A stretch of 64,000 bases of DNA, taken from positions 53,195 through 117,194 of the forward strand of contig PLNT01000036.1 of NCBI GenBank assembly GCA_003141895.1, given 5' to 3'. Within the stretch, counting starts at the first letter, position 1; the number at the start of each line of letters is the position of its first letter. The notes beneath the pieces are model-generated. The model was not told the DNA's origin and searched no databases. It was given only the letters and a program-made list of their open reading frames with translations. Below are positions 982 through 23,372 of this stretch, piece after piece. Source of the DNA: Bacteroidales bacterium (lineage in GTDB: Bacteria > Bacteroidota > Bacteroidia > Bacteroidales > VadinHA17). The position numbers were made by a program, and so were the translations under genes.

Positions 982-2268
982 ATGATTTACAAACAAGAAT
1001 ATGACAAAATAAAACTACTTCCACCAAAAAAGAGAGGATTTCAGTTCGAAAAACTTATTAATAAAATTTGCCATGATGAAGGGATTCTATTATCTGATTC
1101 CTATAAAACAGCAGATACAGAACAACAGATTGATGGTGCTATTGAAATTAATAAAAGGATTTTTCTAATTGAGGCAAAATGGGAAAGAACAGAAACATTA
1201 GCAGCATCTAAGCTATATAGTTTCTTAGGCAAAATAAATTCAAAAATCGAAGGAACAATTGGAATATTTATCTCCCATAATGTTCTTAGTGATAACTTTA
1301 TTTCTGCAGTAAGAAATGGGTTAAGACAAAACTGTATCTTAATTCATGGAAAGGAAAATATTTTGGATATAATGGATGGGAAAGTAAGTCTGGAAGAATT
1401 CATATGGTATACGTATCAGCAAGCATCAACTAAAAATCTAAGCTGTATAAATACCTCAGAATTTTTAAGTATCCCTATTAGAACTTACTCAAAAACAACA
1501 ACTACAACATTACCACCACAAAATTGGATTGATATCTATCAAAACCTTGTTGATACATCATCCACAATCACTTTTTCTGCCCAATTAGAAACTTTATATA
1601 CACAAGAAATTGAATTAAGTAAAAAGGCTTTAAATCTAATTTCTATCCTCAAAAAAGACAGATTAAGTCATGATAAATACATTTTGCTTATTCAAAAATG
1701 CTTTTCTGAGGAAAAGGATGAATTTGAAAAACAATTTGTTGAGAAACTTAAAAGTCCTTTTTGGAAAGAATACATACCACTACTATCGATAGATTTTATT
1801 AAGAACGACTTAGCGATAAATGAACTGGATAAAACTAAAATTTTGGACAAAGCAATATCACATTTAACTGCTTATTTTGGGACATATGCAGAAGAAAACA
1901 ATGCATCATATTTAATAGACTTTTTATTTGAAAGATTAAATGAAAATGATTTGAAAAAGTTAGCAAATGCATACTTAATTATCTATTGTGATACATCTCG
2001 GTTGGACTATTTCCCGCAAAAACAAACTTCGATTAGAATCTTTAATAATCTGAAAAGAAAGAGTATTTCAATTTCTGAAACTGTTAAACCAACATTAATT
2101 GAGCAGTTAAGGCAGATAAAGAATGATGAATATTTTTCATATGATGATTTGTCAGACGAAAAGAAAATAAAAGAATCAAGTATTAAATTTTTTATAAGGA
2201 AATTTATAAAAGTTCTGGATGATGGTAATTCGGAGAAATTCCTTTCGAAGGAATATGACAAATTATAA
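982..2268 (+). CDS. PD-(D/E)xK (Mrr-cat-like) restriction-endonuclease-fold N-domain fused to an unassigned ~280 aa helical C-domain
   Basis: The N-terminus 'GFQFEKLI...QQIDGAIEINKRIFLIEAKW' gives a D...E-x-K core. I could not assign the alpha-helical, K/E-rich C-terminal part by eye. Confidence 0.55.
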   Translation: MIYKQEYDKIKLLPPKKRGFQFEKLINKICHDEGILLSDSYKTADTEQQIDGAIEINKRIFLIEAKWERTETLAASKLYSFLGKINSKIEGTIGIFISHNVLSDNFISAVRNGLRQNCILIHGKENILDIMDGKVSLEEFIWYTYQQASTKNLSCINTSEFLSIPIRTYSKTTTTTLPPQNWIDIYQNLVDTSSTITFSAQLETLYTQEIELSKKALNLISILKKDRLSHDKYILLIQKCFSEEKDEFEKQFVEKLKSPFWKEYIPLLSIDFIKNDLAINELDKTKILDKAISHLTAYFGTYAEENNASYLIDFLFERLNENDLKKLANAYLIIYCDTSRLDYFPQKQTSIRIFNNLKRKSISISETVKPTLIEQLRQIKNDEYFSYDDLSDEKKIKESSIKFFIRKFIKVLDDGNSEKFLSKEYDKL

Positions 2269-2405: not shown

Positions 2406-3317
2406 TTATTTTTCCTTGTTCTTGGCTTTGGTAATGACGTCTCTTCTTAACTCTTTTGGATATCCAAAAATTCTTAACAAGAAATTATAGATTTTAATTT
2501 TGAAAACTGGAATAAAATTCCCTAATAAACTTATTCCAAGAATGCTCAATAATGTAAATATAGGGTTGTACTTATCAAAAAATCCTTTAATTGATGGTAC
2601 ATAAGAAAGAATTCTGACCAAAAGGAAAAGTGAAAAAATAAAGATTATGGTTTGTGTAAACCATGAGAAAATTTTCACTCGTTTAAGAAACTTTGAATTA
2701 AAATTCTTCAAAAGACAAATCTCGCTACCTGTTGGTGCAACTTTCAAATTAATAATTAAGTTTTCAGCATTAATAGCACAAATAATTTGAAAATCATTTT
2801 TGCTTTCAAATAATGTGACATTTTGATTTATATTATCGTATGCTCTATTCAGTAAATCGTTATTAATCAGTGCTAAATTAAATAGCTTCAAAAAAACCAA
2901 AACAATTTCGGGCAAGTTTGAATTACTTAGAAAATCTTCATTCAAAATATTATCAAAAGTGATGGTGATTGAACTGCGATTTCTCAAGGAGACTATTTCT
3001 TTAATCCATTTTTTTTCTAATCCAAATTTCAAAATACCAAGTACTAAGCAAAAAATTAAAAAATCATCATTTACAAATGGAGTAAGAGAATCCTTATTGG
3101 GATGACTCTTACTTTTTTTATTAAAATGAGTTTCAAATGCAGATTTATCGTTCGATTGAATAGCATTTATTAATCCAAAATAAACTCCATCAGATTCATC
3201 TGGATTGGCTGTAGGAAGTTTTAATGATTTAACTGCCAATAAGTCGTTGAATGCTGTTAATTTTTGATTTTTCAAAATCCTAAATTGATATTCTAATCTT
3301 TTCTCTAAAGAAACCAT
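2406..3317 (-). CDS. pAgo-associated membrane effector candidate (soluble N-domain plus two C-terminal TM helices)
   Basis: Its start overlaps the pAgo stop by 13 nt. The C-terminus has hydrophobic helices 'IFSWFTQTIIFIFSLFLLVRILSYV' and 'IFTLLSILGISLLGNFIPVF'. I recognised no enzymatic motif. Confidence 0.6.
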   Translation of the reverse strand: MVSLEKRLEYQFRILKNQKLTAFNDLLAVKSLKLPTANPDESDGVYFGLINAIQSNDKSAFETHFNKKSKSHPNKDSLTPFVNDDFLIFCLVLGILKFGLEKKWIKEIVSLRNRSSITITFDNILNEDFLSNSNLPEIVLVFLKLFNLALINNDLLNRAYDNINQNVTLFESKNDFQIICAINAENLIINLKVAPTGSEICLLKNFNSKFLKRVKIFSWFTQTIIFIFSLFLLVRILSYVPSIKGFFDKYNPIFTLLSILGISLLGNFIPVFKIKIYNFLLRIFGYPKELRRDVITKAKNKEK

Positions 3318-5602
3318 TTTTTTCTTTTCAATCCATAGTTTAATTTATCAGCATCCCATCCTTCAATGTTTCTCATTTTATTAAGTAAACTTGATATTAA
3401 ATCCGAATACAACATAGTAGCAGGTTGTTCCCCTGCTAAGAAACTTCTCCAAGAAAGATATGTAAAAGAAAATATTTGCTGAGTTATATAATTTAAATCA
3501 TAGAAAAGAAAATCTTTAATGTTGCCGTTATCATATTTACCTTGCGGAGTTCTAATCCTTATTAGGATTGGACTACTCATGCCATGTTTTGCTGTCTTTA
3601 ATTCACTTGCACCAAACATCTGGACTAAACAGGTCTCATTATCTAGAAATATATTACTGGCTCGATTTGGGATATATTCGCCTTTTAATTGATTACTTCC
3701 GTACTTCTTTATACCTACTTGATTAATATCAAAAATTAAGAATGGATGAATTTTTGCAATTGTAACAAAGGCAAATCTTATTTTATACTCTGGAAATTCT
3801 TTTATTAGTTGGCAGACCACATCAAACTCAGTATTTTTTATTGGTTTGAATATGTGAAATATTAGCCTTATTGTGTCCCCTTCTGCCCAACCTTGTTCGA
3901 ATGAAAGTCGTTTAATAGAATTCTGCAGGCTTTTTAATAACTCTTCAAAATAATTCTCGAACGATGCGTCCTTCACCTTGTCACTTAAAAGATATTGTCC
4001 ATCACTTGAAAGGAATGTTGTTATTCCAACAACTCTGTTATTTTCAGCTCCTTTATAGAAATTGCTTCTTATCCAACTATGACCAATTCCAATTATTATT
4101 TCCCTGTCTACAGAGCGTTGAGTAGGTAATACCCAAGGTGTCCCTCCTAATTTTGCATAAATCTGAAGTGCAACTGAATTGAGAATGAATTCGTTATATT
4201 GTTTTATAATTTCAGAGGTAATAAACTGAACAGGTATCTCAAGTGAAAGCAGTTTTGCCTTTATTCTATAATAAGGATTTAATTTATCCTCATATTTTCT
4301 GAAACTCCGAGGGATTTCAATAATTGCTAAATGAGGTTTGTTTTCATCATAACTACTTATAATCTGAAGGTATTCTTCCACATTATTTGTTTGGATTTCC
4401 TTAATATCAAATACGATATCCTGTAAATCATATTTTTTTAAAAGTCCTTTTTGAAAATACTTCGAATTTGGAATACCATCTTTCAAACTTGAAAGAAAAC
4501 CTGCGAAATACCCCCTGTTTATTCTATTACATATGCAGATTATATTAGGTGTTTTAATGTCAAAATTAATACTATCATACGGACCGTAATTTATTAATCC
4601 TTGGTCTGGGTTTGAATTCTGAGTTTTTGTTCCTGCGTAGTCAAAAATAAAAGTTGGAATCTTCAATTCCATCGTATTTGACACTGATTTAAGTTTGCTA
4701 TCAACTGAGAAACAGAAACCATCTTTATTTTGAAATAAAACAGGTTGCCCATTTTCACTGAATAGATACTTTGCAATATTCGAGATTTCACTATAAACTT
4801 TTTTTGCATTATAAATCTCTGATCGCTTGTTCTCAATTATATTAAGAATTTCATCACTTTTTTGTTGAGATGTAGCAAAAGCAAGATAATTACCAATATT
4901 GAATTTTGTTTTCCTAATGAATAATTCATTAAGGTCAAATTTTTTTATTCCTTCATTAGTCTGTACTTGTGCAATATTCCCAACTTTATTTTGAATCACT
5001 CCTATAAACTCTTCATTCGGGGCAAGTATGTTATTCAGACCTTCAAATGGCTCAGAATGAAGTACTTCTACACCAATGATGTTATATCCCTCTTCATTTA
5101 GTTCAGCACAATTTTTATTAAAAATCCAATTACGCCTAATAGTAATAAAAAATCCAAATTGCAGCTTATTATCAATGTTGGTAAGCCTTAATTGCACTTC
5201 TATTAGTTTCTTATATGCTATCCTATTTTGCAAATTGAGAGGAAGAGCATCATAAATAATATCATCCTTTGTCTGTCCTGAAAAAAATCGAAAGGGGTAA
5301 AAATCAACAGGAGTATAATGTGGAAATCTATCTCTGAAAGTTCTAAAAAACAAATGTTTAATCAATGATGCTGTAATTTCCTTATCCTCATAAGTCCGTC
5401 TTTCAGTAATTGTACCTATTATTTGATTTTCATCACCATCTTTGTTGGAGATGTAGATAGCGTCACCGTTTCTAAAAAAGGAGTGAGTAACATTATGGAG
5501 TTTCCTAAGTTGAATTAGTCTATCATCAACATATGGTTCTGTAAACACTTGATATTTTTCAAAATCAATTTGTATTGGAAAGTAATTGAGCTGCATTATC
5601 AA
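3305..5602 (-). CDS. Long prokaryotic Argonaute, predicted catalytically inactive (long-B type)
   Basis: A PIWI signature 'LQIYAKLGGTPWVLP' is present. MID 5'-end pocket-like residues occur in 'NPYYRIKAKLLSLEIPVQFI'. The first DEDX position reads 'IIIGIGHSW' (G instead of D). The RDG position reads 'LIFHIFKP'. At 765 aa it is long, not short. Confidence 0.85.
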   Translation of the reverse strand: MIMQLNYFPIQIDFEKYQVFTEPYVDDRLIQLRKLHNVTHSFFRNGDAIYISNKDGDENQIIGTITERRTYEDKEITASLIKHLFFRTFRDRFPHYTPVDFYPFRFFSGQTKDDIIYDALPLNLQNRIAYKKLIEVQLRLTNIDNKLQFGFFITIRRNWIFNKNCAELNEEGYNIIGVEVLHSEPFEGLNNILAPNEEFIGVIQNKVGNIAQVQTNEGIKKFDLNELFIRKTKFNIGNYLAFATSQQKSDEILNIIENKRSEIYNAKKVYSEISNIAKYLFSENGQPVLFQNKDGFCFSVDSKLKSVSNTMELKIPTFIFDYAGTKTQNSNPDQGLINYGPYDSINFDIKTPNIICICNRINRGYFAGFLSSLKDGIPNSKYFQKGLLKKYDLQDIVFDIKEIQTNNVEEYLQIISSYDENKPHLAIIEIPRSFRKYEDKLNPYYRIKAKLLSLEIPVQFITSEIIKQYNEFILNSVALQIYAKLGGTPWVLPTQRSVDREIIIGIGHSWIRSNFYKGAENNRVVGITTFLSSDGQYLLSDKVKDASFENYFEELLKSLQNSIKRLSFEQGWAEGDTIRLIFHIFKPIKNTEFDVVCQLIKEFPEYKIRFAFVTIAKIHPFLIFDINQVGIKKYGSNQLKGEYIPNRASNIFLDNETCLVQMFGASELKTAKHGMSSPILIRIRTPQGKYDNGNIKDFLFYDLNYITQQIFSFTYLSWRSFLAGEQPATMLYSDLISSLLNKMRNIEGWDADKLNYGLKRKKWFL

Positions 5603-5856
5603 TATATTTAAACATCAACTCCTTAATTATAAGCGCAATGAAATCATTAATTTATTATTCAAATTAAGAAATTGGATTTCATTGACTACAACAAATTTAT
5701 ATAATAACATATTCATTTCATAATTGATTGATTTTATTATTATTCTGTCATAACATCTATTATTTCGCATAGATTGGGATATTAATTAATCATAACAAAA
5801 AACAGACATTTTTTAATATCAAAAATACAGGTGGGGCAAGAATTTGGGATACAAAT

Positions 5857-5880
5857 ATCCCCCAAGAATATTTGGGGGAT
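5857..5880 (-). terminator. Hairpin downstream of the DUF2130-like gene
   Basis: 'atccccca agaatatt tgggggat' forms an 8 bp stem with an 8 nt loop. The distal side on the minus strand is only moderately T-rich. Confidence 0.35.
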
Positions 5881-6004
5881 TATCGTTTATAATATGAACT
5901 ATTAAGTCACTGCATATATTTCCAATCTATGGTCTTGATAATTAACAAAATCATAGTCATCGGTATTCTAAAAGGAAGCATCAACGAGTAGGGTCTTTTC
6001 GTAT

Positions 6005-7177
6005 TCAACTCACCTCTTTAGCATCCCCTGATTCAAGTTCCAATGTTTGAACTTTCTGCAATGTAGCACCAAGACCAGTTAAGTCACCATAAACACCTGC
6101 CATATTATGAACAACACGATAAAGTTGTTTATCCCTCTTTGCCCAAATTTTTTCCATAGCAGTTCGTTCTTTTTCTATGTCCGATTTCATTTCTCTTAAT
6201 GCTTCACCAGTTGCTTCAATTCTTGTTTTGAATTCAGTTCCTGTAACATAGTTGTAGATTAAATCACTAATACTTGAACGACCTGCAATGGCTGATTTAG
6301 TTTGATGAAGTTCTTGGAATTTAGTTCGTATAGCTGTTGCAAGTCCAATAATTGAATAAAAGTCGCTAATCCAAATTCCATCTTGGAATCCGAAACGTTT
6401 AATAGTTTTGGGCAATGCTTTGGTCACGATAATCCCAACAGTTTCACCACCAGTTTGTCTTTGGTCGTCTTTGAGTTTTGCAATCCATCCATCGCTCCAA
6501 TTTTCAGCGTTCTTTGCTTCCCAAATTATTGTTCCGCATTGTTTTAAGTTATCTGTCTTGACACGATGTATAATATCAGCACCTCGTTTACCTTTTGGAA
6601 TAGGCTCAAATTCATCAGTTGGGAAACAACTTCTTAAAATATTTTCTAACTCTTGTTCAAACGCTTCTCCCTGTTCTTCCATTGAACCTTGCTTCGCTTT
6701 CTTCTGAAGTTCTTCAGCCAATTTTTCCAATCGTGTAATTTTCTGGTCTTTCTCTGAAAGTTTTCCTTTCAATTCAGTTTCGACTTCCTCACGAATTGAT
6801 GTTTGAAGTTCTTCAGTTTTCTTATTGATGAAACGCTGCTTGTCAAGTTCAATTTGTTTTTCTTTATCAGCAATTTCTCTTTCTCGTTTCAAAAATTTGA
6901 GTTCCTTTTCAGTAAAATCTTCTGCCTTAGTTTCAAATTCTTTTACCTGATTTTTTAGGTTTTCTACTTCTGCCTGAACTTCTTTCTTTGCTTTTAACGT
7001 TGCCTGACCTGCTGCTTCTTTTTTTGCACTATCAATTTGTTGCAAGTGTTCTTCTTCAAGATCATCCAACATTTTTTGGTGGTCAGACTTTACTTGTTCT
7101 TCTATTTCGTGCTTCATGGCTTCCGATAATGGAAACTTTTTGTTGCAATGCGGGCATGTTATTAGTTGCTCTTTCAT
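6005..7177 (-). CDS. DUF2130-like protein: N-terminal Zn-ribbon, long coiled coil, C-terminal PD-(D/E)xK-like domain
   Basis: It has 'CPHCNKKF' at the N-terminus and about 170 aa of E/K-rich coiled coil. The motif 'RGADIIHRV...GTIIWEAKN' gives D...E-A-K. Confidence 0.6.
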   Translation of the reverse strand: MKEQLITCPHCNKKFPLSEAMKHEIEEQVKSDHQKMLDDLEEEHLQQIDSAKKEAAGQATLKAKKEVQAEVENLKNQVKEFETKAEDFTEKELKFLKREREIADKEKQIELDKQRFINKKTEELQTSIREEVETELKGKLSEKDQKITRLEKLAEELQKKAKQGSMEEQGEAFEQELENILRSCFPTDEFEPIPKGKRGADIIHRVKTDNLKQCGTIIWEAKNAENWSDGWIAKLKDDQRQTGGETVGIIVTKALPKTIKRFGFQDGIWISDFYSIIGLATAIRTKFQELHQTKSAIAGRSSISDLIYNYVTGTEFKTRIEATGEALREMKSDIEKERTAMEKIWAKRDKQLYRVVHNMAGVYGDLTGLGATLQKVQTLELESGDAKEVS

Positions 7178-7647: not shown

Positions 7648-8235
7648 TTAGAAACTCAGAATGTCATACGTTTCCAAGAGTTCTTTCTGGCTGATGCCCA
7701 GATACCGTCTTGTAATTGCAGGATTACTGTGATTAAATAACTGGCTGAGTTTTACAATTGCTAATTCTGCATTTTCGGCAGAACGATTGAATATTTCCCT
7801 GCCAAAGGACTTTCTGAGGCTATGACTACTAAAATTTTTAATCTTTAAATTATACTGTTTCTTTAAGTCTTTCAAAATAATATTAATTCTTTGCAGGCTA
7901 AAGACTGTTCCTTTCTGGCTGAGAAACATGAACTCATTCAGGGTACTTGGCTTAATACTTTGATAGCAATCAGAAATGTGTCGTTTTAGTTGAGCATTTA
8001 TTTTTATATCACGTTTCTTCCGTGTTTTCTTCTCTACCAGTTGAAATTCATCCTTTTCGAGAAGATCTTCCCACCTAAGGTTAAGTGTATCACTTGCACG
8101 TAATCCAAAAAAGCATGAACACGCTATATATAAAGAAAGAGTAATCCTATTATCATCATATAATTTCCGAACCAAATTCATTGCTTCAGTCCATTCCAAG
8201 TAATCTGCTGTCGTATTTGAATATTTCTTACTCAT
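7648..8235 (-). CDS. Short tyrosine recombinase (catalytic domain only)
   Basis: Catalytic residues are visible by eye: 'GLRASD' (R), 'HSLRKSF' (HxxR) and 'HSNPAITRRYLG' (H...Y). At 195 aa it lacks an arm- or core-binding N-domain. Confidence 0.8.
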   Translation of the reverse strand: MSKKYSNTTADYLEWTEAMNLVRKLYDDNRITLSLYIACSCFFGLRASDTLNLRWEDLLEKDEFQLVEKKTRKKRDIKINAQLKRHISDCYQSIKPSTLNEFMFLSQKGTVFSLQRINIILKDLKKQYNLKIKNFSSHSLRKSFGREIFNRSAENAELAIVKLSQLFNHSNPAITRRYLGISQKELLETYDILSF

Positions 8236-9972: not shown

Positions 9973-10992
9973 CTATTTTACAAAAACAAAAATTGGTTCA
10001 TAATTAAATTGTGTTTTTTTATCTTGTAAATTCACATTTGAAAGTGCTAATTGATATGTGGTTTCGTGCTTAAATCCAACTCTCTCAGCAGTTTTTTTGG
10101 TTTCCCACTCCAAATTAATGTTGTGCTTTCCTTTTACATCAGCTATGTTAATCAGCATGTATCCCCCGTGTTTTAAACCATAATAACAATTCTCAAATGT
10201 TTTTCTTAAATATCCATCAATCCATGCTTGTTTTCTATTAAACCTAATATAGCTCTGCGAAGGTTCGTCACTGTATTTTTCTAAGTTGAAATATGGCGGT
10301 GAAGTAAAACACAAATCCAGCATTCCTTTTTCTGGCTGATAATCTTCACTTCCTGTATTAAAAATTTCATAATACATATTACCTGCAAAGTCCTCTGCCA
10401 TATCATGCAATCCATCAAATGATAATTTCGATGGTTCTGTTGCAATATAGTGTTTCACGCCACCAGCGATTGCTCCAAGCAATCTACCTCCCCAGCCGCC
10501 TGACATATCCCAAACAACACCGTTTTTTGCATACATGTCATATATGCACGCTGCTGCTGTTGGTCTAAAGTTTGACACTCCCTGTACACCAGAATAAATT
10601 TTCAACATCTTTCTTATGCCAGAATCTGCTACATAAGTACCCATCTGTAATCTTTTACGAATAACTTTCATAAAAATTTCATCATTCATAAATGCTTCAT
10701 AAGGTGTCATTTTACCATTTGACCTGACATTGAACGAATGTGGAAAATATGACCACGCAAGTCCCAAACCATGCATGGATTGCTTTATGATACTGCCAAC
10801 AAATAATCTTTTAAAATCATGTTTCATTAAATTTTCAAAATCCTTTTGTCTGGTTGCATCATCTGTTTGAAAATATGGAAAGCCAATTTCTCTGTAATGT
10901 GTAAAAATTTTTATTGCAAAGTTTTCTAATTCATCGGGTGTCATATTTATCCAATCAATTTTATTTATGTGTAAACCTTTTTTTCTTATCAT
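9973..10992 (-). CDS. DNA methyltransferase (N4-C/N6-A class, SPPY motif), no adjacent nuclease
   Basis: The motif I-like 'VWDMSGGWGGRLLGA' precedes motif IV 'CFTSPPYFN'. Confidence 0.8.
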   Translation of the reverse strand: MIRKKGLHINKIDWINMTPDELENFAIKIFTHYREIGFPYFQTDDATRQKDFENLMKHDFKRLFVGSIIKQSMHGLGLAWSYFPHSFNVRSNGKMTPYEAFMNDEIFMKVIRKRLQMGTYVADSGIRKMLKIYSGVQGVSNFRPTAAACIYDMYAKNGVVWDMSGGWGGRLLGAIAGGVKHYIATEPSKLSFDGLHDMAEDFAGNMYYEIFNTGSEDYQPEKGMLDLCFTSPPYFNLEKYSDEPSQSYIRFNRKQAWIDGYLRKTFENCYYGLKHGGYMLINIADVKGKHNINLEWETKKTAERVGFKHETTYQLALSNVNLQDKKTQFNYEPIFVFVK

Positions 10993-12209: not shown

Positions 12210-14045
12210 ATGACAGAACTGATCTGGGAAGGAAAGTACAAAGACGGCAAAAAGGCAACACCTATTCGTATTGCTTTACCCTTCCAAACCATTGAAACTA
12301 TTAATGAAAGTGTCCAGCAAAGACAAAAATCATTGGATTTTTTTGCATCAGAACCCAATGCTTCTTACGACAAAGAGTGGCGTAATAGGATAATCTGGGG
12401 TGATAAAAAATATGTTCTACCAAGTTTATTGCCTGAATTTGCAGGCAAAGTGAACCTGATTTATATTGACCCACCATTTAATGTTGGTTCAGATTTTTCT
12501 TTTACTGCAACAATTGCTGATAATCCAGATACAGATGAAGATGAAACAACACAGTTTGTAAAACAACCAAGTATCATTGAGCAGAAGGCATACAGGGACA
12601 CATGGGGAAAAGGATTGGATAGTTACATGCAATGGTTCTATGAAACTGCTTTACTGCTAAAGGAATTACTTACTGATAATGGTAGTATTTATGTGCATTT
12701 GGATTGGCATGTTGGACATTATGCAAAAACAGTTCTGGATGAAGTATTTGGTTATGAAAATTTTAGAAATGAAATCATATGGTATTATTATAATAAATTC
12801 CAAGGCAACATAAATAGATTTGCGTCTAATCATGATGTGGTTTTTTTATATTCAAAAGGTGAAAAGTTTAAATTTAAGAAGCAGATTGAAAAGAGACCTG
12901 AAAGAATAAAACAGATAAAAAGAGTTTGGGATAAGGAGAAAAGCAAAATTGTTAACGCTAAAGGTGAAGATGGTAAGGTTTTGTATATAGAGACTGATGT
13001 AAAAACAGTGGATGACGTTTGGCGAATATCAATGCTTCAGCCTGCTGATAAAACTGAAAACTTGTTTTATCCTACCCAAAAACCTGAAGCACTAATAGAG
13101 AGAATAGTCAATGCAAGTAGTGATGAAGGAGACTTAATATTGGATTGTTTCTGTGGAAGTGGAACAACAGCAGCAACTTCAGAAAAATTAAATCGCAGAT
13201 GGATTGCTTGCGACCTTGGAAGATTCGCCATTCATACTACACGAAAAAGATTGTTAGGTACTGAAAATGTGAAACCCTTTATAGTCCAAAACCTTGGTAA
13301 ATACGAACGTCAACAATGGATGAATGCTGAATTTGAGAATCCTGAAAATCGGATTCAACAGGAAAAGGCATACAAACATTTTATTATAGAACTGTATCAA
13401 GCTAAATCCCTGAATGGTTATACGTGGCTGCATGGAGCAAAAGCTGGGAGATTGGTTCATGTGGGGAGTGTAGAAGCACCTGTAGCAATTGAAGATATCA
13501 AATCTGCCATAAAAGAGTTTTGGCAATTGATTGGCAAAGAAAAATCTTTACAAACTAATGGTATAGATTTCTTAGGTTGGGACTTTGCATTTGATGTAAA
13601 CGAGACTGCCAAACAATTTGCAGCCGAAAACAAAGTGGATGTTTCATTTAAAAAAATACCTCGTGAGGTCTTAGAAAAAAAAGCAGTTGAACAAGGAGAT
13701 ATTAAGTTTTATGAACTGGCTTCATTAACTATAAAAACAAAAATCGTAAGCAAGAAGCTAACCATAGCACTCGATAATTTTATTATCCCCCCTGATGATG
13801 TACCACAGGACGTTCAAGGTAAAATTTCACATTGGAGTCAATGGATTGATTATTGGGCAGTGGATTGGAATTACAGGGACGATACATTTCATAATGAATG
13901 GCAGAGCTATCGTACCAAACAAGAACCTAAAATTGATTTAACTGTAGCACATGTTTATGAAACATCTGCAAAATATACCGTTCTGATCAAAGTGATCGAT
14001 ATTTTAGGCAACGATACAACTAAAGTTCTTCATATTGACATTTAA
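12210..14045 (+). CDS. mod: Type III R-M methyltransferase (Mod), beta-class N6-adenine
   Basis: Motif IV 'LIYIDPPFNVGSDF' precedes motif I 'LDCFCGSGTTAATSEKL'. Res follows 2 nt downstream. Confidence 0.9.
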   Translation: MTELIWEGKYKDGKKATPIRIALPFQTIETINESVQQRQKSLDFFASEPNASYDKEWRNRIIWGDKKYVLPSLLPEFAGKVNLIYIDPPFNVGSDFSFTATIADNPDTDEDETTQFVKQPSIIEQKAYRDTWGKGLDSYMQWFYETALLLKELLTDNGSIYVHLDWHVGHYAKTVLDEVFGYENFRNEIIWYYYNKFQGNINRFASNHDVVFLYSKGEKFKFKKQIEKRPERIKQIKRVWDKEKSKIVNAKGEDGKVLYIETDVKTVDDVWRISMLQPADKTENLFYPTQKPEALIERIVNASSDEGDLILDCFCGSGTTAATSEKLNRRWIACDLGRFAIHTTRKRLLGTENVKPFIVQNLGKYERQQWMNAEFENPENRIQQEKAYKHFIIELYQAKSLNGYTWLHGAKAGRLVHVGSVEAPVAIEDIKSAIKEFWQLIGKEKSLQTNGIDFLGWDFAFDVNETAKQFAAENKVDVSFKKIPREVLEKKAVEQGDIKFYELASLTIKTKIVSKKLTIALDNFIIPPDDVPQDVQGKISHWSQWIDYWAVDWNYRDDTFHNEWQSYRTKQEPKIDLTVAHVYETSAKYTVLIKVIDILGNDTTKVLHIDI

Positions 14046-14047
14046 TT

Positions 14048-16615
14048 ATGGCACGTAAAAAAGCACCCAACGCTCAAAAAGACCTGTTTAATATCCAAGA
14101 ACAGTTAAGTACGGCTGCTTGTGTCCCAGCCATTCGTGAAGCAGTTAAAGCATGGAGAAACGACAAATACAAAGGTATTACTGCTACAACAAGAGAATTA
14201 TTGAACTTCTGGTTTTACACAGACCATATTCTACATAATGGTCAAACATTTCGCTATCATACGGCACAGCGTGAAGCGATTGAAACCCTTATTTATATCT
14301 ATGAAGTAAAAAAGATAAGAACAAGAAAAGACTTGCTTGAAAATTATGCTTTTACATTAAAAGATTTAAGACTTCCCCCTTACGATGATTTTGCAAGATA
14401 TTGTGTGAAAATGGCGACAGGAAGTGGCAAAACAAAAGTAATGGCACTGGCAATTGTTTGGCAGTTTGCCAATGCAGTAAAAGAAGATGAAACCCAGTAT
14501 GCAAAAAACTTTTTAGTGCTTGCACCTAATGTTATTGTTTTCGACCGATTGAAAAGTGATTTTGAAAGTGGTAAAATATTTAGAACCGACCCATTAATAC
14601 CAAAACATTTTCAATGGTGGTGGGAAATGGAATACTACATGCGAGGCGATACAGAACGCACAAATAGTACAGGTGCTTTGTATTTGACCAATATTCAACA
14701 ATTCTATGAAAGAAATATAAAATCAAGTGAAGAAGAAGTTGATATTATGACTTCAATGCTTGGTTCAAAACCACCTTCTACCAAGACCGAGATTACTGAT
14801 TTTGATGAGCGTATTGAAAAGCGTGATGGTTTATTGATGGTACTAAATGATGAAGCACATCATACACATGATGAAGAAAGCGAGTGGAGTAAATTAATCA
14901 GGAGACTCCATACACAAAAAAATATTACAGCACAATTGGATTTTTCTGCTACACCACGTTATAGTAAGGGAAGTTTATTTGCATGGACTGTATTTGATTA
15001 TCCACTGAAACAAGCTATACTTGATAGAATAGTAAAACGTCCTATAAAGGGTATTTCACATATTGAAGAAGCAAAATCTGATATTTCAAGTGTACGTTAT
15101 CAAGGATTTATCACGGCAGGTGTTGAACGATGGAAAGAATATAAAGAACAATTATCGAAACTGGATAAAAAACCTATCCTGTTTGTTATGTTGAACAATA
15201 CTATTGAGGCTGATGATATTGGTGATTGGCTTAGAGTAAAGTATCCAGCAGAATTCGGTGGAGATAAAACCTTAATTATTCATACAGATAACACAGGTGA
15301 GGTCAGCAAGAAAGACCTTGACCTTGCAAGAAAAACAGCACGTGATGTTGATGATGAGAAAAGTCCAGTGAATGCGATAATTTCCGTTTTGATGTTACGT
15401 GAAGGCTGGGATGTACAAAACGTTACAGTAGTGGTGGGTTTGCGACCGTATTCTGCAAAGGCAAACATTCTTCCTGAGCAGACTATTGGTAGAGGACTAC
15501 GCTTGATGTTCCGCAACATGAGTGGAAGTTATACTGAACGTGTTGATATCATTGGCAATAATGCCTTTATGGAATTTGTTGAAGATTTGGAAAGACTGGA
15601 AGATTTAAAGTTTGAAACATTTCAGATCGGCAAGGATAAACTGAAAATACTAACAGTTCAGCCAGTCGAAGATAAAAAGGATTATGATATTGGAATCCCT
15701 GATATTTCATCTGTACTGGCAAGAAAAAAATCTTTAGCAGAAGAAATTGGCGATATAGATGTCATGAATTTTAATATAAACATTCTTCCATTTAAGGGGA
15801 AAGACCTTGGTGAAACAAAGACGTTTATATATGAAGGTAGAGACATATTGACTGATGAAAAATTACTTGAAAGAGAATATACCATTCCACCCGCACAGAC
15901 TGTAGAAGAAGTTATTGGATACTACGCCAGACGAATTGCGCAGAATATCAAGCTGCCCTCTCACTTTGCACTAATTGCACCAAAAGTTCGGGAATTCTTC
16001 GAATATAAAGCATTCGGGAGAAGAATTGACATCAATGATATAAATGTTATCCCCGCAATAAGCAGTAATATTGCCAGTTATGTGGTAATTAAAGAATTTG
16101 AAAGAGTATTACGTGAAATAGTTATTGAACACAAAGAACCGCAACTTCTTTCAGCCAACCGCTTTCTGTCATTAACAGTCCCATTCCCCACATCAAAAAA
16201 AGTGTTGGAAGCGAAGAAATCAGTATTTAATTACACACCCTGTGACAACGAATTTGAATATAATTTTGCAAAATTCCTTGAAAAGGCAGATGATATAAAA
16301 GCATTTGCAAAACTTCCAGAACAATTCGGCTTCTGTATTCAATACACTGACACAGTAGCGAACATTAGAAATTACTTCCCAGATTTTATTGCAATATCTG
16401 AAGATAATACTAACTGGATAATTGAGACCAAGGGAAGAGAAGATATTGAAGTGAAGCTGAAAGATAATGCTGCTATTAATTGGTGCAAGATCGCAACTGA
16501 ATTAACTAATGCCAAATGGCAGTATATAAAAGTGGCACAGAAAGAATTTGAACAATTACATCCTGAGAGTTTTGACGAACTGATTGCAGCAATTAATCCA
16601 CTAACATTATTTTAA
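14048..16615 (+). CDS. res: Type III restriction enzyme (Res): SF2 helicase plus C-terminal PD-ExK nuclease
   Basis: Helicase motifs are 'MATGSGKTKVMA' (Walker A), 'VLNDEAHH' (DEAH), 'MLREGWDVQNV' and 'QTIGRGLR'. The C-terminal 'PDFIAISEDNTNWIIETKG' is the nuclease core. Confidence 0.9.
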   Translation: MARKKAPNAQKDLFNIQEQLSTAACVPAIREAVKAWRNDKYKGITATTRELLNFWFYTDHILHNGQTFRYHTAQREAIETLIYIYEVKKIRTRKDLLENYAFTLKDLRLPPYDDFARYCVKMATGSGKTKVMALAIVWQFANAVKEDETQYAKNFLVLAPNVIVFDRLKSDFESGKIFRTDPLIPKHFQWWWEMEYYMRGDTERTNSTGALYLTNIQQFYERNIKSSEEEVDIMTSMLGSKPPSTKTEITDFDERIEKRDGLLMVLNDEAHHTHDEESEWSKLIRRLHTQKNITAQLDFSATPRYSKGSLFAWTVFDYPLKQAILDRIVKRPIKGISHIEEAKSDISSVRYQGFITAGVERWKEYKEQLSKLDKKPILFVMLNNTIEADDIGDWLRVKYPAEFGGDKTLIIHTDNTGEVSKKDLDLARKTARDVDDEKSPVNAIISVLMLREGWDVQNVTVVVGLRPYSAKANILPEQTIGRGLRLMFRNMSGSYTERVDIIGNNAFMEFVEDLERLEDLKFETFQIGKDKLKILTVQPVEDKKDYDIGIPDISSVLARKKSLAEEIGDIDVMNFNINILPFKGKDLGETKTFIYEGRDILTDEKLLEREYTIPPAQTVEEVIGYYARRIAQNIKLPSHFALIAPKVREFFEYKAFGRRIDINDINVIPAISSNIASYVVIKEFERVLREIVIEHKEPQLLSANRFLSLTVPFPTSKKVLEAKKSVFNYTPCDNEFEYNFAKFLEKADDIKAFAKLPEQFGFCIQYTDTVANIRNYFPDFIAISEDNTNWIIETKGREDIEVKLKDNAAINWCKIATELTNAKWQYIKVAQKEFEQLHPESFDELIAAINPLTLF

Positions 16616-16853: not shown

Positions 16854-18011
16854 TTGAAAATTGAACAAAATATATCGAGACTTAAATATCTGCTGACATT
16901 ATACAAAATGACAGTGGAAGAGTTGTTGACTTTTATCAGTGAAGGATTGAAAACTCCACTGACCAAGGACGATATTTTTGGCAATGAAATCAACCTAAGC
17001 CATCTAAAACGAATTGACAAAGTTTTTAATAAAGGACTTCACTACTATTTAGACCCTAAATCACCTGACGTTTCGCAAGACGCAAGTATTTTTTTTAGAA
17101 AAAATAAATTTGGGACAGACTTAAATATTGGAGCTAAAAAAATTGTAAATCAATTTGAAGAATTTAAAATTTCACTGTCTGCTATAGCAAAACTTTCTGA
17201 GTTAAATATGGAAAGAACCATTCCAATATTTAGCATTAAACAAGAACCCAAAAAAGTTGCTCAAGACTTACGAGAAGAACTTTATCCAGACTTCAATTCA
17301 ATTCCAAAAGAATTTCTAAGAGCACTAATTGGTAAACTTGCTGAAAACAACATTTTGGTTTTTGAATTTGTAGAAACTTGGAATAAAAAAGAAAAAGCAA
17401 ACATTGATGGTTTTTTCTTAAATCCAAGTGTGATTGTTCTTAAAAGGCAACAAACATCTTTTCGTAGAGAAATTTTTACGCTCATTCACGAATTGGGACA
17501 CTTCTTAATAAACGAAGAGGAGATAGAGCAATTAGATGTTTTAAGTCTTGCTAACTCTAAATTGAGTGCAATTGAAAGATGGTGTAATGACTTTGCATAT
17601 TATTTTTTAGTAGGAGACTTTGATAAAGCAATTATAAGCATTGATAAAGCTGACGGTAACAACGACTATCATTTTGACATTATCGAAAAAGTTTCTGAAA
17701 AAACGCATTTAAGTGAAATAGCTTTGTTTACAAAATTGCTTTTTGAAAATAAAATATCACAATCCAACTACAACTTAATAAAAACAGACAAGGACGAGGA
17801 ATACAGGCAGAGACAAGAAGAAGAAAAAAAGAAAAGGGAACTTGATAAACTTCAAGGCATTAAAACAAGTGGTTCAACCCCTAAACCTATGAATTCACCT
17901 TTGCTTGTTTCCACAATCCAGACTGCATTTTACGAAGGAGTAATTAACGAGTATGATGTATGTAAGACTTTAAATATTTCACCTGATAAATTAGAAACAT
18001 TTTTACAATGA
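16854..18011 (+). CDS. ImmA/IrrE-family (COG2856) Zn-metallopeptidase with an N-terminal HTH-like region
   Basis: It carries the HExxH motif 'LIHELGHFL'. The N-terminus 'RLKYLLTLYKMTVEELLTFIS' is HTH-like. The listed ORF starts at TTG, and an in-frame ATG lies at about 16908. Confidence 0.8.
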   Translation: MKIEQNISRLKYLLTLYKMTVEELLTFISEGLKTPLTKDDIFGNEINLSHLKRIDKVFNKGLHYYLDPKSPDVSQDASIFFRKNKFGTDLNIGAKKIVNQFEEFKISLSAIAKLSELNMERTIPIFSIKQEPKKVAQDLREELYPDFNSIPKEFLRALIGKLAENNILVFEFVETWNKKEKANIDGFFLNPSVIVLKRQQTSFRREIFTLIHELGHFLINEEEIEQLDVLSLANSKLSAIERWCNDFAYYFLVGDFDKAIISIDKADGNNDYHFDIIEKVSEKTHLSEIALFTKLLFENKISQSNYNLIKTDKDEEYRQRQEEEKKKRELDKLQGIKTSGSTPKPMNSPLLVSTIQTAFYEGVINEYDVCKTLNISPDKLETFLQ

Positions 18012-18583
18012 AAGTAGTAATTGACACAAATTCACTTTTGTCGTTGGTTCGTTACTACTTACCATTCGATAAGAAGTCAGTCTTATTTGAATTCATAAAA
18101 GAAAAAATCAATCAGGGTGAAATTATTATCATTGACAAGGTTCTTGAAGAATGTACATACAATTCTAAAGGACTTGTAATCAAAACACTTGTATATCTTG
18201 AAGATAAAGCATTCCTTAAATCGGCAAAAGTTCCTTACAAAACTGAATCTTTATTAGCTCCTTCTCCAGCAAAATTTCTTAGACAGGTTGACAATCAATT
18301 CGTCAATACATTCTTAAGAAATCAGCGAAAACTGACAGATACAGAGTTTGAAAACCAAAAGAACAGTTTTCTTAACGATGCTGATATTAGACAGATTATC
18401 CTTTGCTTAAACATTATTAAAGAGGGAGAAGAAGTCATTTTAGTGACAGAAGAATCAGAAGTCAGCAACGACAACAAATTATTCAAGAAAATTCCAGCAA
18501 TCTGCAAAGAGTTAGATATACTGACAATGACACTTCCTGAACTTTTGGACAAATATGATGGTATTAACATTGACTTCAAATAA
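18008..18583 (+). CDS. PIN-like DUF4411-type protein, partner of the ImmA/IrrE peptidase
   Basis: It overlaps the upstream stop by 4 nt (ATGA). The N-terminus 'MKVVIDTNSLL' is PIN-like. The pairing with COG2856 is a known gene neighbourhood. Confidence 0.55.
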   Translation: MKVVIDTNSLLSLVRYYLPFDKKSVLFEFIKEKINQGEIIIIDKVLEECTYNSKGLVIKTLVYLEDKAFLKSAKVPYKTESLLAPSPAKFLRQVDNQFVNTFLRNQRKLTDTEFENQKNSFLNDADIRQIILCLNIIKEGEEVILVTEESEVSNDNKLFKKIPAICKELDILTMTLPELLDKYDGINIDFK

Positions 18584-18756: not shown

Positions 18757-19674
18757 ATGATACCAGACTATCAATCATTAATGCTTCCACTTCTTCAACT
18801 TACTTCAGACAGGCAAGATCATAAGTACAGAGACCTTATTGAAAATTTAGCTACTGAGTTTAAAGTAACAGACGAAGAACGCAAAGAACTTCTTGCAAGT
18901 GGAAACCAACTAATTTTTGACAATAGAGTTGGCTGGGCAAAAACATATTTAAAAAAGGCTGGACTTCTGGATTCTCCAAAACGAGCAACATTTGTAATTA
19001 CCGAACTTGGACTTCAAACATTAAATAAAAAGCCTGACCGTATTGATGCAAAATTTTTAAGACAGTTTCCTGCTTTTCTTGAATTTGTACATGCAGGACG
19101 AAATGATAATGAAATCGATGAAGAAATAATTTCACATGAAATACCAACACAAACCCCAGAAGAAAACCTTGATAGAGCATATCAAAGCATCAGAAAATCA
19201 TTAGCATCAGAATTGCTAACCAATGTTATTGAATTATCTCCCACATTTTTTGAAAGACTGGTAGTTGACCTATTAGTAAAAATGGGTTATGGAGGTTCTA
19301 TTAAAGACGCAGGGAAGGCAATCGGTAAAAGTGGTGATGAAGGCATTGATGGCACGATTAAAGAAGATAAGTTAGGTCTTGATATTATTTATATCCAAGC
19401 AAAACGTTGGAAATCAGGAAATGTAGTGGGGAGACCAGAAATTCAGAAATTCGTAGGCGCACTTGCAGGGCAAGGAGCAAAAAAGGGCATCTTCATTACA
19501 ACATCAAATTTTACAAAGGAAGCATTGGATTACACACCCAAGAATGAAACTAAAATCGTTCTTATTGACGGTGAACAATTAGCTCAACTAATGATAGATC
19601 ACAATATTGGTTGCACCACACAGCAGATATATGAACTGAAAAAAATTGATAACGATTATTTTGGCGAAGAATAA
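18757..19674 (+). CDS. mrr: Mrr-family type IV (modification-dependent) restriction endonuclease
   Basis: The Mrr_N winged-helix start is 'MIPDYQSLMLPLLQL...VGWAKTYLKKAGLL'. The catalytic region is 'FERLVVDLLVKMGYGG...GDEGIDG...IIYIQAKRW'. Confidence 0.85.
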   Translation: MIPDYQSLMLPLLQLTSDRQDHKYRDLIENLATEFKVTDEERKELLASGNQLIFDNRVGWAKTYLKKAGLLDSPKRATFVITELGLQTLNKKPDRIDAKFLRQFPAFLEFVHAGRNDNEIDEEIISHEIPTQTPEENLDRAYQSIRKSLASELLTNVIELSPTFFERLVVDLLVKMGYGGSIKDAGKAIGKSGDEGIDGTIKEDKLGLDIIYIQAKRWKSGNVVGRPEIQKFVGALAGQGAKKGIFITTSNFTKEALDYTPKNETKIVLIDGEQLAQLMIDHNIGCTTQQIYELKKIDNDYFGEE

Positions 19675-19680
19675 TTTTAG

Positions 19681-20304
19681 CTAAGGGAATTCGAGGAAAA
19701 TATGTTTTAACAAAATATTATTTTCATGATAAGAATGATATACTTCTTCGTGACCGCCTATGCTCTCCCCATTAATTAGAATTTCTTTATCTCGATTGTC
19801 TTTGATCATTAATTTATTTATACCGTTAATACAATCCTTAGAATTGCATTTAATTACATAACCTGCCAAACAACCATCTGGATATCTACCAGATAAAAAA
19901 TTTTGTATACCAGTTGTAAGATATCTTCGTTTTAATTTGCTACTTGAAGACTTTATCTTTTTCGCTTCAATCGTATATTTGAATGATTCAGGATTTGACA
20001 GAACATATTTCTCAAACCGAATATCAGGACGTGGTGCTTTACTTGTAGAAACAACTCCATCTAAATGTTCTTCTGTGTAATATGGAACTTGTGGAACAAT
20101 AAACCAATAACCATTGTATTTAAGAGGTATTTTGGGCATGTATCTATCAACCAAAACAGCTGTATACACATCCTCATCTAATTCATTCATAAAAACAGGG
20201 TCGGATTTTGCAAGTTTATATGCCTCAACAAGTATTCTGTTACATTGAGAATGCAATATATTGCGGATATTATTTTGAATTTGATTATTTAAACTACCTA
20301 ACAT
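19681..20304 (-). CDS. Small PD-(D/E)xK nuclease candidate, coupled to the upstream methyltransferase
   Basis: 'PRPDIRFEKY...KYTIEAKKI' gives PD...E-A-K. Its start overlaps the methyltransferase stop by 7 nt. Confidence 0.55.
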   Translation of the reverse strand: MLGSLNNQIQNNIRNILHSQCNRILVEAYKLAKSDPVFMNELDEDVYTAVLVDRYMPKIPLKYNGYWFIVPQVPYYTEEHLDGVVSTSKAPRPDIRFEKYVLSNPESFKYTIEAKKIKSSSSKLKRRYLTTGIQNFLSGRYPDGCLAGYVIKCNSKDCINGINKLMIKDNRDKEILINGESIGGHEEVYHSYHENNILLKHIFLEFP

Positions 20305-23300: not shown

Positions 23301-23372
23301 TACTATCGCTGCATCTAAATCAAAATCTAACTGTTCAATAAAAAAATTATTGTTCATTTTATTGTTTTGCAC
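20298..23372 (-). CDS. Large gamma-class N6-adenine DNA methyltransferase with MmeI/Eco57I-like architecture
   Basis: It has 'GTYYTPSSVVELV', motif I 'MDFACGSGIFLAQAY' and motif IV 'VIVGNPPFGV'. A helical spacer 'IRSIFLMYLQDRKAIP' and a long C-terminal TRD-like region are also present. Confidence 0.85.
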   Translation of the reverse strand: MQNNKMNNNFFIEQLDFDLDAAIVPTDVKLLAQSVGVDSVYCSGEYPSVFFKEISDFSQKNLRLIAEIQRKIWNNSSVVLLYVVSLTEIRIYNCNSTPVFFNTANPDTEAELGKRQIEYCKVNEIEKLNFLKSVFSSVAIDTGKLWTSEYSQQIKLKTKVDRYLVDSLLRLARILRADLDDETIHSLLIRSIFLMYLQDRKAIPEEIWNKMGVKDFLQALDDKEKTYSLFDEIANHFHGNILPFNKSELQKVTKEHLGLIKMCLIDGNIDLIQGRLFNWRLFDFSFIRIELLSEIYENFLNEFDPIRKKQTGTYYTPSSVVELVLDNVLPKDGDDYHLKIMDFACGSGIFLAQAYKRIVRYWVKQNSDKKLSFNALSNLMINSIFGVELDTKSIKVAAFSLYLALLDFLEPRDIWLKNGEVFPLLINDLNCITSNTYGSNLFRADSINENNEFEKIKYDVIVGNPPFGVNNLPKNIREYCEKYAFDKQFAIPFIHKSVQLAPNGKIALLFNTKLLTNKKNTAKNFRNWLFNENYVEKIYNLSILRKAPENFGGQLFYSASVPVSIICFRKNIPQNSSATIIYCAPKSFIKSNIAEGILIDSSDIKYIPREICNEPDINIWKISQWGTIGDYFLIKKLTQFSPLGESFADSNNGVGFQTLDKTTKTPIKNNQIKKLSYIQPEQINRYFTQRSSIRPINSCIKTQETKIKYLKFYNSKDIDSIPLINVFRRVGKVNAFYAPHIIIKEGLFNKRVCASYLDIDCSFNSKVYGIHHHNTTLLKALTCYINSKLSTYFLFLTSASWGIEREEIKPNDIKSLPKISEKYHKVLSKLLDDIIEKQNKILPDYLEDIEHQIDSIIYESLNLTEKEIILIEDLYKYSLSLFFEGEKSLSLSPISIESPETINYINIVCNELNEFLSADDSIVNGKIFKILPNIPLCVCILKFDNEKKDLELLSSDSELSSILNKINEFTLQEYSQNIYVRKQIRYYDNDRIYIIKPNQKRYWTRSQGFEDAESLLTEISQIKC

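Follow-up and report, generated by a model that had tools for sequence, protein, structure and literature searches.

Here, we describe two adjacent genes in a stretch of 64,000 nucleotides (nt) from a Bacteroidales metagenome-assembled genome (MAG; GenBank assembly GCA_003141895.1, contig PLNT01000036.1, positions 53,195 to 117,194 of the forward strand). This whole stretch is called the window below, and positions are counted from its first letter. The first gene encodes a prokaryotic Argonaute (pAgo; the window Ago), and the second encodes a small partner protein that has a predicted membrane region and is homologous to bAgaM. Systems composed of a long-B pAgo and bAgaM, the latter being Ryazansky's orthogroup og_100, were named BPAM by Song et al. 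(2023; PMC10620215), and on the basis of sequence the window pair is a further member of this type. The two genes and their overlap are as follows.

3305..5596, minus strand: long-B pAgo of 763 amino acids (aa), ATG start at 5596; assigned by PADLOC pAgo_II, Pfam Piwi and relatives in PDB
2406..3317, minus strand: partner, bAgaM homologue of 303 aa, ATG start; assigned by PADLOC Aga_Unknown and by its match to EabAgaM of Elizabethkingia anophelis
3305..3317, minus strand: 13-nt Ago/partner overlap, ATGGTTTCTTTAG, in which the Ago ends with ...KKWFL* and the partner starts with MVSL in another frame

Identity and active site of the Argonaute

The Ago open reading frame (ORF) was listed mechanically as 3305..5602 on the minus strand (765 aa), with a TTG start at 5602, two codons before the ATG; Ago residue numbers throughout follow this 765-aa numbering. 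Translation most likely begins at codon 3 of this ORF, the ATG at 5596, because the N-terminus MQLN/MxxNFFP is found in all 27 of 27 Ago orthologues, both tblastn and BLASTP alignments of the window Ago begin at residue 3, and a protein of 763 aa was called by NCBI and by JGI, each independently, from the same sequence.

A first-pass annotation, made from the letters alone, had recognized this ORF as an Argonaute, and profile searches agreed: the window Ago scored 49.6 bits against Pfam Piwi (cut-off 28.9) and 863 bits against PADLOC pAgo_II, with residues 3-765 covering profile positions 1-724 of 724. Its best solved relatives in PDB were EcAgo (E value 1e-78; 23wq) and RsAgo (3e-64), and AfPiwi and the short pAgos were far weaker matches. 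The alignment with EcAgo runs from end to end (residues 3-765 against EcAgo 3-731), and this span indicates a full-length architecture (N, L1, PAZ or PAZ*, L2, MID and PIWI). Judged by these comparisons, the window Ago is in the long-B clade (Ryazansky et al., 2018). It is not an RsAgo equivalog, since its score against the corresponding NCBIfam model (261 bits) was under the cut-off of 700. The residues considered next are located as follows.

3401..4084, minus strand: degenerate PIWI tetrad, mapped through the EcAgo alignment and the published EcAgo positions
4082-4084, minus strand: tetrad position 1, G507 (G in 28 of 28 orthologues)
3956-3958, minus strand: tetrad position 2, the glutamate finger, E549 (E in 26 and D in 2 of 28)
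3848-3850, minus strand: tetrad position 3, F585 (F in 28 of 28)
3401-3403, minus strand: tetrad position 4, D734 (of 28: N in 21, D in 2, namely the window and L001, S in 2, and E, G and F in 1 each)
4151..4273, minus strand: MID pocket for the guide 5'-phosphate, Y444, K448, Q459 and K484 ('YK' type), aligned with the RsAgo/EcAgo motif

The tetrad was mapped through the strong EcAgo alignment because alignments with TtAgo failed when global (hhalign of the Ago family profile) or were weak when local (E value 0.06 and worse). In EcAgo, the tetrad has been published as G492/E532/Q568/D700, with E532 equivalent to TtAgo E512 and RsAgo E569 (PMC13535254). The TtAgo reference sequence was 100% identical to PDB 3dlb_A and carried D478/E512/D546/D660 at the expected motifs, and its weak local alignments, in which the Gly of IGIGHS lies opposite D478 and the Asp of LYSDL opposite D660, agree at positions 1 and 4. 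The canonical DEDX tetrad is absent from the window Ago: the first Asp is replaced by Gly and the third by Phe, and the glutamate finger is kept. Thus, the loss of the first and third positions, which had been read by eye from the strings IGIGHS and FHIFKP, was confirmed and proved invariant in the 28 sequences, and the suspected Asp in LYSDL is indeed present. The family alignment indicates that this last Asp is a non-conserved detail with no evident significance. Instead of an intact DEDX, which would have spoken against a catalytically dead protein, the tetrad reads G507/E549/F585/D734.

The motifs quoted in the first-pass annotation were located at residues 482-490 (YAKLGGTPW), 444-450 (YYRIKAK) and 457-460 (PVQF). 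The YK motif in the MID domain is typical of long-B pAgos (PMC6299218), and its four residues, together with the C-terminal Leu, were invariant in 28 of 28 orthologues. With the phosphate pocket intact and two catalytic Asp residues lost, the window Ago should be able to bind a guide, and target cleavage should be precluded.

Family and anatomy of the partner protein

The partner matched the PADLOC model 'Aga_Unknown, Class II' over its full length with 344.5 bits, and this was the only one among the PADLOC effector models that it matched. No match was found in Pfam, NCBIfam or PDB sequence searches, and a PDB profile search gave none at E values up to 10; the earlier impression that the protein contains no recognisable motif was thus correct. 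The same annotation regarded the effector as uncharacterised, which holds for its fold, action and trigger and does not hold for its family, already known as og_100, bAgaM or Aga_Unknown, nor for its membrane region, which is needed for killing (see below). Its 151 close homologues were all about 300 aa long and all unnamed. When 1.84 billion cluster representatives were searched exhaustively with HMMER, 218 partner clusters (50% identity) were obtained, nearly all of 280-310 aa and matching from end to end. On account of this uniform length and end-to-end matching, the family has a single architecture, and its N-terminal domain is not reused elsewhere. The following parts could be distinguished.

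2718..3317, minus strand: N-terminal all-alpha domain, residues 1 to ~200, predicted to be cytoplasmic (AlphaFold2 predicted local distance difference test, pLDDT, mostly 84-96)
3051..3101, minus strand: most conserved motif of the family, P73-NKDSLT-PFVNDDFLIF-89
2601..2675, minus strand: predicted trans-membrane (TM) helix 1, residues 215-239 (Kyte-Doolittle up to 2.12; inside helix 199-239)
2496..2564, minus strand: predicted TM helix 2, residues 252-274 (Kyte-Doolittle up to 2.03; inside helix 251-283)

The AlphaFold2 model, built on a 110-sequence alignment, was confident (mean pLDDT 85.2) and all-alpha; residues 4-191 form eleven short helices, after which come the two long helices 199-239 and 251-283. 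A Foldseek search of the model against PDB gave a best E value of 2.3 (TM 0.2-0.3) in a copy that ends 2026-04-08, which 23wq may post-date, and the best E value against viral models (BFVD) was 0.8. Entries of the Bcl-2 family and of pore toxins appeared in the Foldseek output with probabilities of only 0.02-0.04 and were disregarded.

TM helices were called from hydropathy (Kyte-Doolittle, threshold 1.6) together with the structural model. Two segments of the partner exceeded the threshold (about 215-243 and 252-274), and of 96 diverse representatives of the family, 97% had a hydrophobic TM1 (at least 1.6) and 65% a hydrophobic TM2. The two C-terminal TM helices proposed in the first pass therefore have the support of hydropathy, of the AlphaFold2 helices and of hydrophobicity across the family. 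In the 96 representatives the TM sequences were conserved in hydrophobicity only, with G261 conserved in 94%, and TM2 is followed by a basic C-terminal tail with a conserved G285-Y286. The average net charge in the family was +3.1 on the N-terminal side of TM1, -0.5 in the loop between the two helices and +2.5 beyond TM2; by the positive-inside rule, this pattern indicates that both ends of the protein, and with them the N-terminal domain, would face the cytoplasm. Additional TM helices at 78-100 and 133-156, two internal hydrophobic stretches of the window partner, were rejected: the helices predicted there are 11-13 residues long and the regions 78-100 and 130-158 are hydrophobic in only 25% and 7% of the representatives, so they are core helices and not membrane spans. 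Two polar residues that might line a pore, Q222 and N267, were conserved in close relatives and not in the diverse set, and we make no claim about them.

With regard to the N-terminal domain, P73, P80, D84, D85, L87 and F89 were invariant even when a distant branch (26-31% identical) was included, and P73, P80, D85, L87 and F89 were at least 80% conserved in the 96 diverse representatives. The conserved residues of this domain comprise P73, P80, D84/D85, L87, F89, G94, W104, R112, N123 and N134, and those around the membrane hairpin comprise F206, F210, R213, G261 and G285-Y286. The term 'sensor domain', which was attached to this region in the first pass, is an interpretation and not an observation.

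Linkage of the two genes

The overlap of the partner gene with the Ago stop on the same strand (3305-3317) was 13 nt, as first reported, and it suggests that the pair is translationally coupled. An identical 13-nt overlap was present in 27 of 27 complete orthologous loci. A scan of 185,579 species-representative genomes yielded 31 partner loci, mostly from Bacteroidota (Flavobacterium, Chryseobacterium, Kaistella, Pedobacter, Sphingobacterium, Capnocytophaga and Chitinophaga) and from a few other MAGs, with the following composition.

27 of 31 loci: complete Ago orthologue with 47-78% identity, whose end lies exactly 13 nt inside the partner gene
1 of 31 loci: Ago cut by the contig end, with its C-terminus present
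1 of 31 loci (L002): Ago split over three frames
1 of 31 loci: untestable because the contig is cut
1 of 31 loci (L026): no Ago, and only a truncated remnant of the partner

Thus, an Ago lay directly upstream of the partner in 29 of the 30 genomic loci that could be tested. In addition, a Hymenobacter plasmid carries a 23%-identical partner homologue behind a 'Piwi domain-containing protein', again with a 13-nt overlap. The linkage between Ago and partner is near absolute, which answers the question of co-occurrence raised in the first pass. When phage-borne copies were looked for, no phage record was found to carry the partner gene. Clustering of all ORFs in the loci revealed that only Ago and partner were universally common, and the two genes therefore form a self-contained cassette.

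It should be noted that the N-terminus of the partner, M-V-[S/P/F]-[L/I/V], is fully set by the Ago ...KKWFL* in the overlapping frame (L001-L031 and L036). The invariant MV should not be read as functional, since it is dictated by AAA TGG TTY YTN TAR. The nuclease EcbAgaN of the related BPAN system likewise starts with MVPIE. Judging from these sequences, the overlap would either predate the divergence of the effector types or have arisen repeatedly under the same constraint.

Two of the loci showed signs of decay. The copy in Flavobacterium caseinilyticum (L026:6001-6795) consists of the partner remnant mentioned above, and in an Ignavibacteria MAG (L002:2-2986) both the Ago and the downstream hsdR lie in several frames, due to either real decay or assembly frameshifts. 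With such relics in existence, it could be asked whether the window pair is itself a decayed, non-functional cassette in a MAG. We consider this extremely unlikely, as both window ORFs have their full length and align collinearly with their orthologues, every family-invariant residue that was checked is present, and 14 contigs from several samples carry an identical protein.

Relationship to the BPAM system of E. anophelis

To date, the only tested BPAM is that of E. anophelis (EaBPAM), whose sequences (EaAgo, DAC74552; EabAgaM, DAC74551) were taken from Supplementary Data 1 of Song et al. (2023). EabAgaM was 48% identical to the window partner over 295 of 303 residues (E value 1e-92) and collinear with it from end to end, and EaAgo was 66% identical to the window Ago over its first 399 residues. 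On the basis of these identities, the window locus is an orthologue of the E. anophelis BPAM pair. The composition is also that of a BPAM: a bAgaM/og_100 homologue with a C-terminal trans-membrane region stands immediately behind a pAgo, in the same gene order (Ago, then partner) and in the same phylum, Bacteroidota. The host, here known from a MAG, and the neighboring genes are different, and no functional difference is suggested. The proposal of a long-B pAgo with a membrane effector, of the abortive-infection type, thus corresponds to an architecture that has already been published.

Co-expression of EaAgo and full-length EabAgaM reduced the viability of E. coli ~1000-fold, and no killing occurred with EaAgo alone, with EabAgaM alone or when EabAgaM lacked its C-terminal membrane region of 106 residues (PMC10620215). 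This truncation corresponds to about residues 198-303 of the window partner. Killing persisted with a low-copy vector and needed no plasmid trigger, and no interaction between EaAgo and EabAgaM was seen in a pull-down (PMC10620215).

Genomic surroundings of the pair in the window and in related loci

The genes and features around the pair in the window are listed below.

982-2268, plus strand: 428-aa protein, downstream of the partner gene and convergent with it, with a weak Mrr-type N-terminus (17.7 bits, below cut-off)
5597..6004, minus strand: intergenic region of 408 bp between the DUF2130 gene and Ago, upstream of the latter
5857-5880: perfect G+C-rich hairpin of 9-10 pairs, between the DUF2130 gene and Ago
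6005-7177, minus strand: DUF2130 protein (198 bits), which has a zinc-ribbon-like CxxC motif at its N-terminus and contains a long coiled coil
7648-8235: truncated integrase, upstream of Ago
9973-10992: N4/N6 DNA methylase, part of a defence island
12210-16615: type III restriction-modification (R-M) Mod and Res, part of the island
16854-18583: pair of IrrE-like peptidase M78 and DUF4411, part of the island
18757-19674: Mrr, part of the island
20298-23372: MmeI/Eco57I-type methylase-endonuclease, part of the island
26047-26841: the second of two further methyltransferases of the island, and the only one of the two that is a DNA methylase
27657-28943: integrase with a Bacteroidetes-type Arm DNA-binding domain, at the end of the island

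The upstream side of Ago also holds two XRE-type regulators and a DNA methylase. No tRNA gene was found in the window, the G+C content was about 30% throughout, and there was no compositional break at the Ago-partner pair. This dense defence-island context fits a defence role of the pair. The promoter of the pair presumably lies in 5597..6004; a sigma-70 scan upstream of Ago found 26 sites against 22.7 in shuffled sequences and hence no enrichment, although promoters of the Bacteroidota kind fall outside such a scan. The hairpin may be the terminator of the DUF2130 gene, in which case the Ago pair would be transcribed separately. The 428-aa protein had no PADLOC or NCBIfam match and may be the product of a further defence gene. 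On all contigs with an identical partner (L032-L034), the pair is accompanied by the gene for this protein and by a DUF2188 gene (720-959).

None of the neighbors in the window was common to the other loci, in which two different settings recurred. In about 12 of the 31 loci, the pair is located inside a same-strand type I R-M operon with the order hsdM, hsdS, Ago, partner, sometimes Fic, hsdR and a YgjP-like metallopeptidase (L005:937-12121, L003, L008, L011, L012, L021, L023 and L028, with a variant in L006, L007 and L009), and the hsdS stop is found 2-5 nt before the Ago start. HsdS has been listed among pAgo-associated genes (Ryazansky et al., 2018), and in the literature we found no study of a functional link between type I R-M and the Ago-bAgaM pair. 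The recurrent position of the pair between hsdS and hsdR could mean that the two systems cooperate, restriction products serving for instance as a source of guides for the Ago, and are not simply co-located, although we consider this rather doubtful. In about eight loci, the pair adjoins a ParA-like gene, DUF3408 and a conserved 211-aa gene, an arrangement that resembles the backbone of Bacteroidetes conjugative transposons (L006:10933-12756, L007, L009, L015, L018, L019, L020 and L022). This suggests that the Ago-bAgaM cassette rides on conjugative elements.

A compact two-gene cassette that occurs in settings as unrelated as defence islands, type I R-M operons, regions resembling conjugative elements and a plasmid, and whose toxicity in a heterologous host had no identified trigger, could also be an addiction or stabilisation module of a mobile island, in which bAgaM is a membrane toxin checked by Ago or by guide loading, so that loss of the element kills. 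We regard this as very improbable: EabAgaM alone was non-toxic and Ago was required, which is the opposite of a toxin-antitoxin arrangement, and the intact, invariant guide pocket argues for nucleic-acid sensing.

The frequent proximity to conjugative-element genes (ParA, DUF3408) is also compatible with a non-lethal interference, in which bAgaM would anchor the guide-loaded Ago at the envelope where DNA enters, and Ago would block incoming conjugative or transforming DNA by binding, as proposed for plasmid silencing of the RsAgo type; the lethality in E. coli would then be an artefact of over-expression. The toxicity of EaBPAM without an invader, the lack of a stable complex and TM sequences that are conserved in hydrophobicity only, as those of an anchor would be, point in the same direction. 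On the other hand, killing depended on both proteins and on the membrane region and was still seen with a low-copy vector, suicidal action has been demonstrated for sister long-B systems that have a nuclease or SIR2 partner, and a conserved domain of 200 residues with invariant motifs would be superfluous in an anchor. Such an anchoring role is therefore improbable in our view.

Proposed function and its weak points

Taken together, we think that the locus is very probably a BPAM defence module, composed of a non-cutting long-B Ago as sensor and the small inner-membrane bAgaM as killing effector. By analogy with EcBPAN, the Ago would load a small 5'-phosphorylated RNA guide and recognise complementary DNA of an invader, and only the target-bound Ago would then engage the cytoplasmic domain of bAgaM. 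Release or assembly of the membrane hairpins might follow, causing membrane damage, and the cell would stop growing or die before the invader spreads (abortive infection). The gene overlap probably couples translation, so that both proteins would be made together.

Several points weigh against this model. The evidence for killing comes from the E. anophelis orthologue and not from the window locus, and it is evidence of toxicity, obtained in E. coli without an added plasmid, and not of protection against phages or plasmids. The pull-down with that orthologue showed no physical interaction between Ago and bAgaM, which would be explained if recruitment takes place only after target recognition. 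Membrane damage is deduced, for every BPAM, and the types of guide and target are extrapolated from the distantly related EcAgo and RsAgo. Moreover, the EcAgo residues that contact bAgaN are mostly non-conserved in the window Ago, where D541, E569 and G571 stand in place of S524, R552 and N554, and the mode of docking may differ, since no sequence homology was found between the N-terminal domains of bAgaM and bAgaN.

A further idea, which goes beyond the model and which we consider rather doubtful, is that the N-terminal domain of bAgaM represents a new fold and a new Argonaute-docking switch, with the hairpin staying inert until target-bound Ago assembles the lesion. The invariant P-x6-PFVNDDF segment would then correspond to the loop that bAgaN inserts into Ago, either through convergence or through very remote homology.

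No new principle emerges from the locus, which is a further BPAM of a type that standard defence tools already find. It is, nevertheless, a clean and intact orthologue of the sole BPAM to have been tested, with an identity of ~50-65%, in a family of 218 clusters. The question it touches is general to BPAM, namely the nature of the cytoplasmic domain of bAgaM and how Ago switches the membrane hairpin. A search of the later literature, within a searchable library, found no paper resolving the mechanism of bAgaM, and a confident AlphaFold model without a structural neighbor means that the cytoplasmic domain of the effector is still a blank. The conservation map is useful in providing candidate residues for mutation (P73, P80, D84/D85, W104, R112, F206/F210/R213, G261 and G285-Y286).

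Comparison with other Argonaute systems

The closest system with a solved structure is EcBPAN, in which an E. coli long-B pAgo is paired with the PD-(D/E)XK nuclease bAgaN. EcAgo is the best solved relative of the window Ago over its full length and has the same tetrad pattern (G, E, non-acidic, D). The two-gene layout is also the same, and the MVPIE start of EcbAgaN implies the same overlap with ...WFL*. The effectors differ in that the EcBPAN effector is a soluble nuclease in an 8:8 complex, whereas the window partner is a predicted membrane protein. RNA-guided EcAgo recognises target DNA first and then recruits the auto-inhibited effector, a loop of EcbAgaN being inserted between EcAgo's MID and PIWI domains (PMC13535254). 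EcBPAN is therefore the likely template for a mechanism in which target recognition comes first and effector recruitment second.

By eye, the segment HPNKDSLTPFVNDDF of the window partner resembles APKIDSTPRPWVSDMF of EcbAgaN, which comprises the protruding loop inserted into Ago and the following residues. A relationship between the N-terminal domain of bAgaM and the Ago-docking domain of bAgaN was nevertheless unsupported by profile, motif hidden Markov model (HMM) and PDB profile tests. The hhalign probability was 0.7% for the 110-sequence partner profile against EcbAgaN and 1% for the 96-sequence diverse profile against 31 bAgaN sequences; both alignments covered the first ~30-35 residues only, of which the first 4-5 are fixed by the gene overlap. 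The motif HMM scored a median of -4.5 bits on real bAgaN, a value reached by 39% of 3000 decoys, and its positions were inconsistent. The PD-(D/E)XK nuclease domain that defines BPAN (PF18742) was not found in the window partner, which had no Pfam match and an hhalign probability of ~1% against bAgaN.

Like the window Ago, RsAgo of Rhodobacter sphaeroides (PDB 5awh and 6d8a), the archetype of the long-B clade, has a MID pocket of the YK type and a PIWI domain that is inactive. It is followed by a predicted nuclease gene (BPAN type), whereas the window Ago is followed by a gene for a membrane protein.

A like logic is found in SiAgo-Aga1-Aga2 of Sulfolobus islandicus, where, as presented in the papers that cite Zeng et al. 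(2022) (PMC10620215 and PMC11788926), a short pAgo activates a membrane effector, so that an inactive Ago sensor is again combined with a membrane-associated killing protein. According to these accounts, SiAgo is short (MID-PIWI only) and needs the adaptor Aga1, whereas the window Ago is full length and has no third conserved gene. As far as these accounts go, SiAgo-Aga1-Aga2 is analogous, and not homologous, to the window pair.

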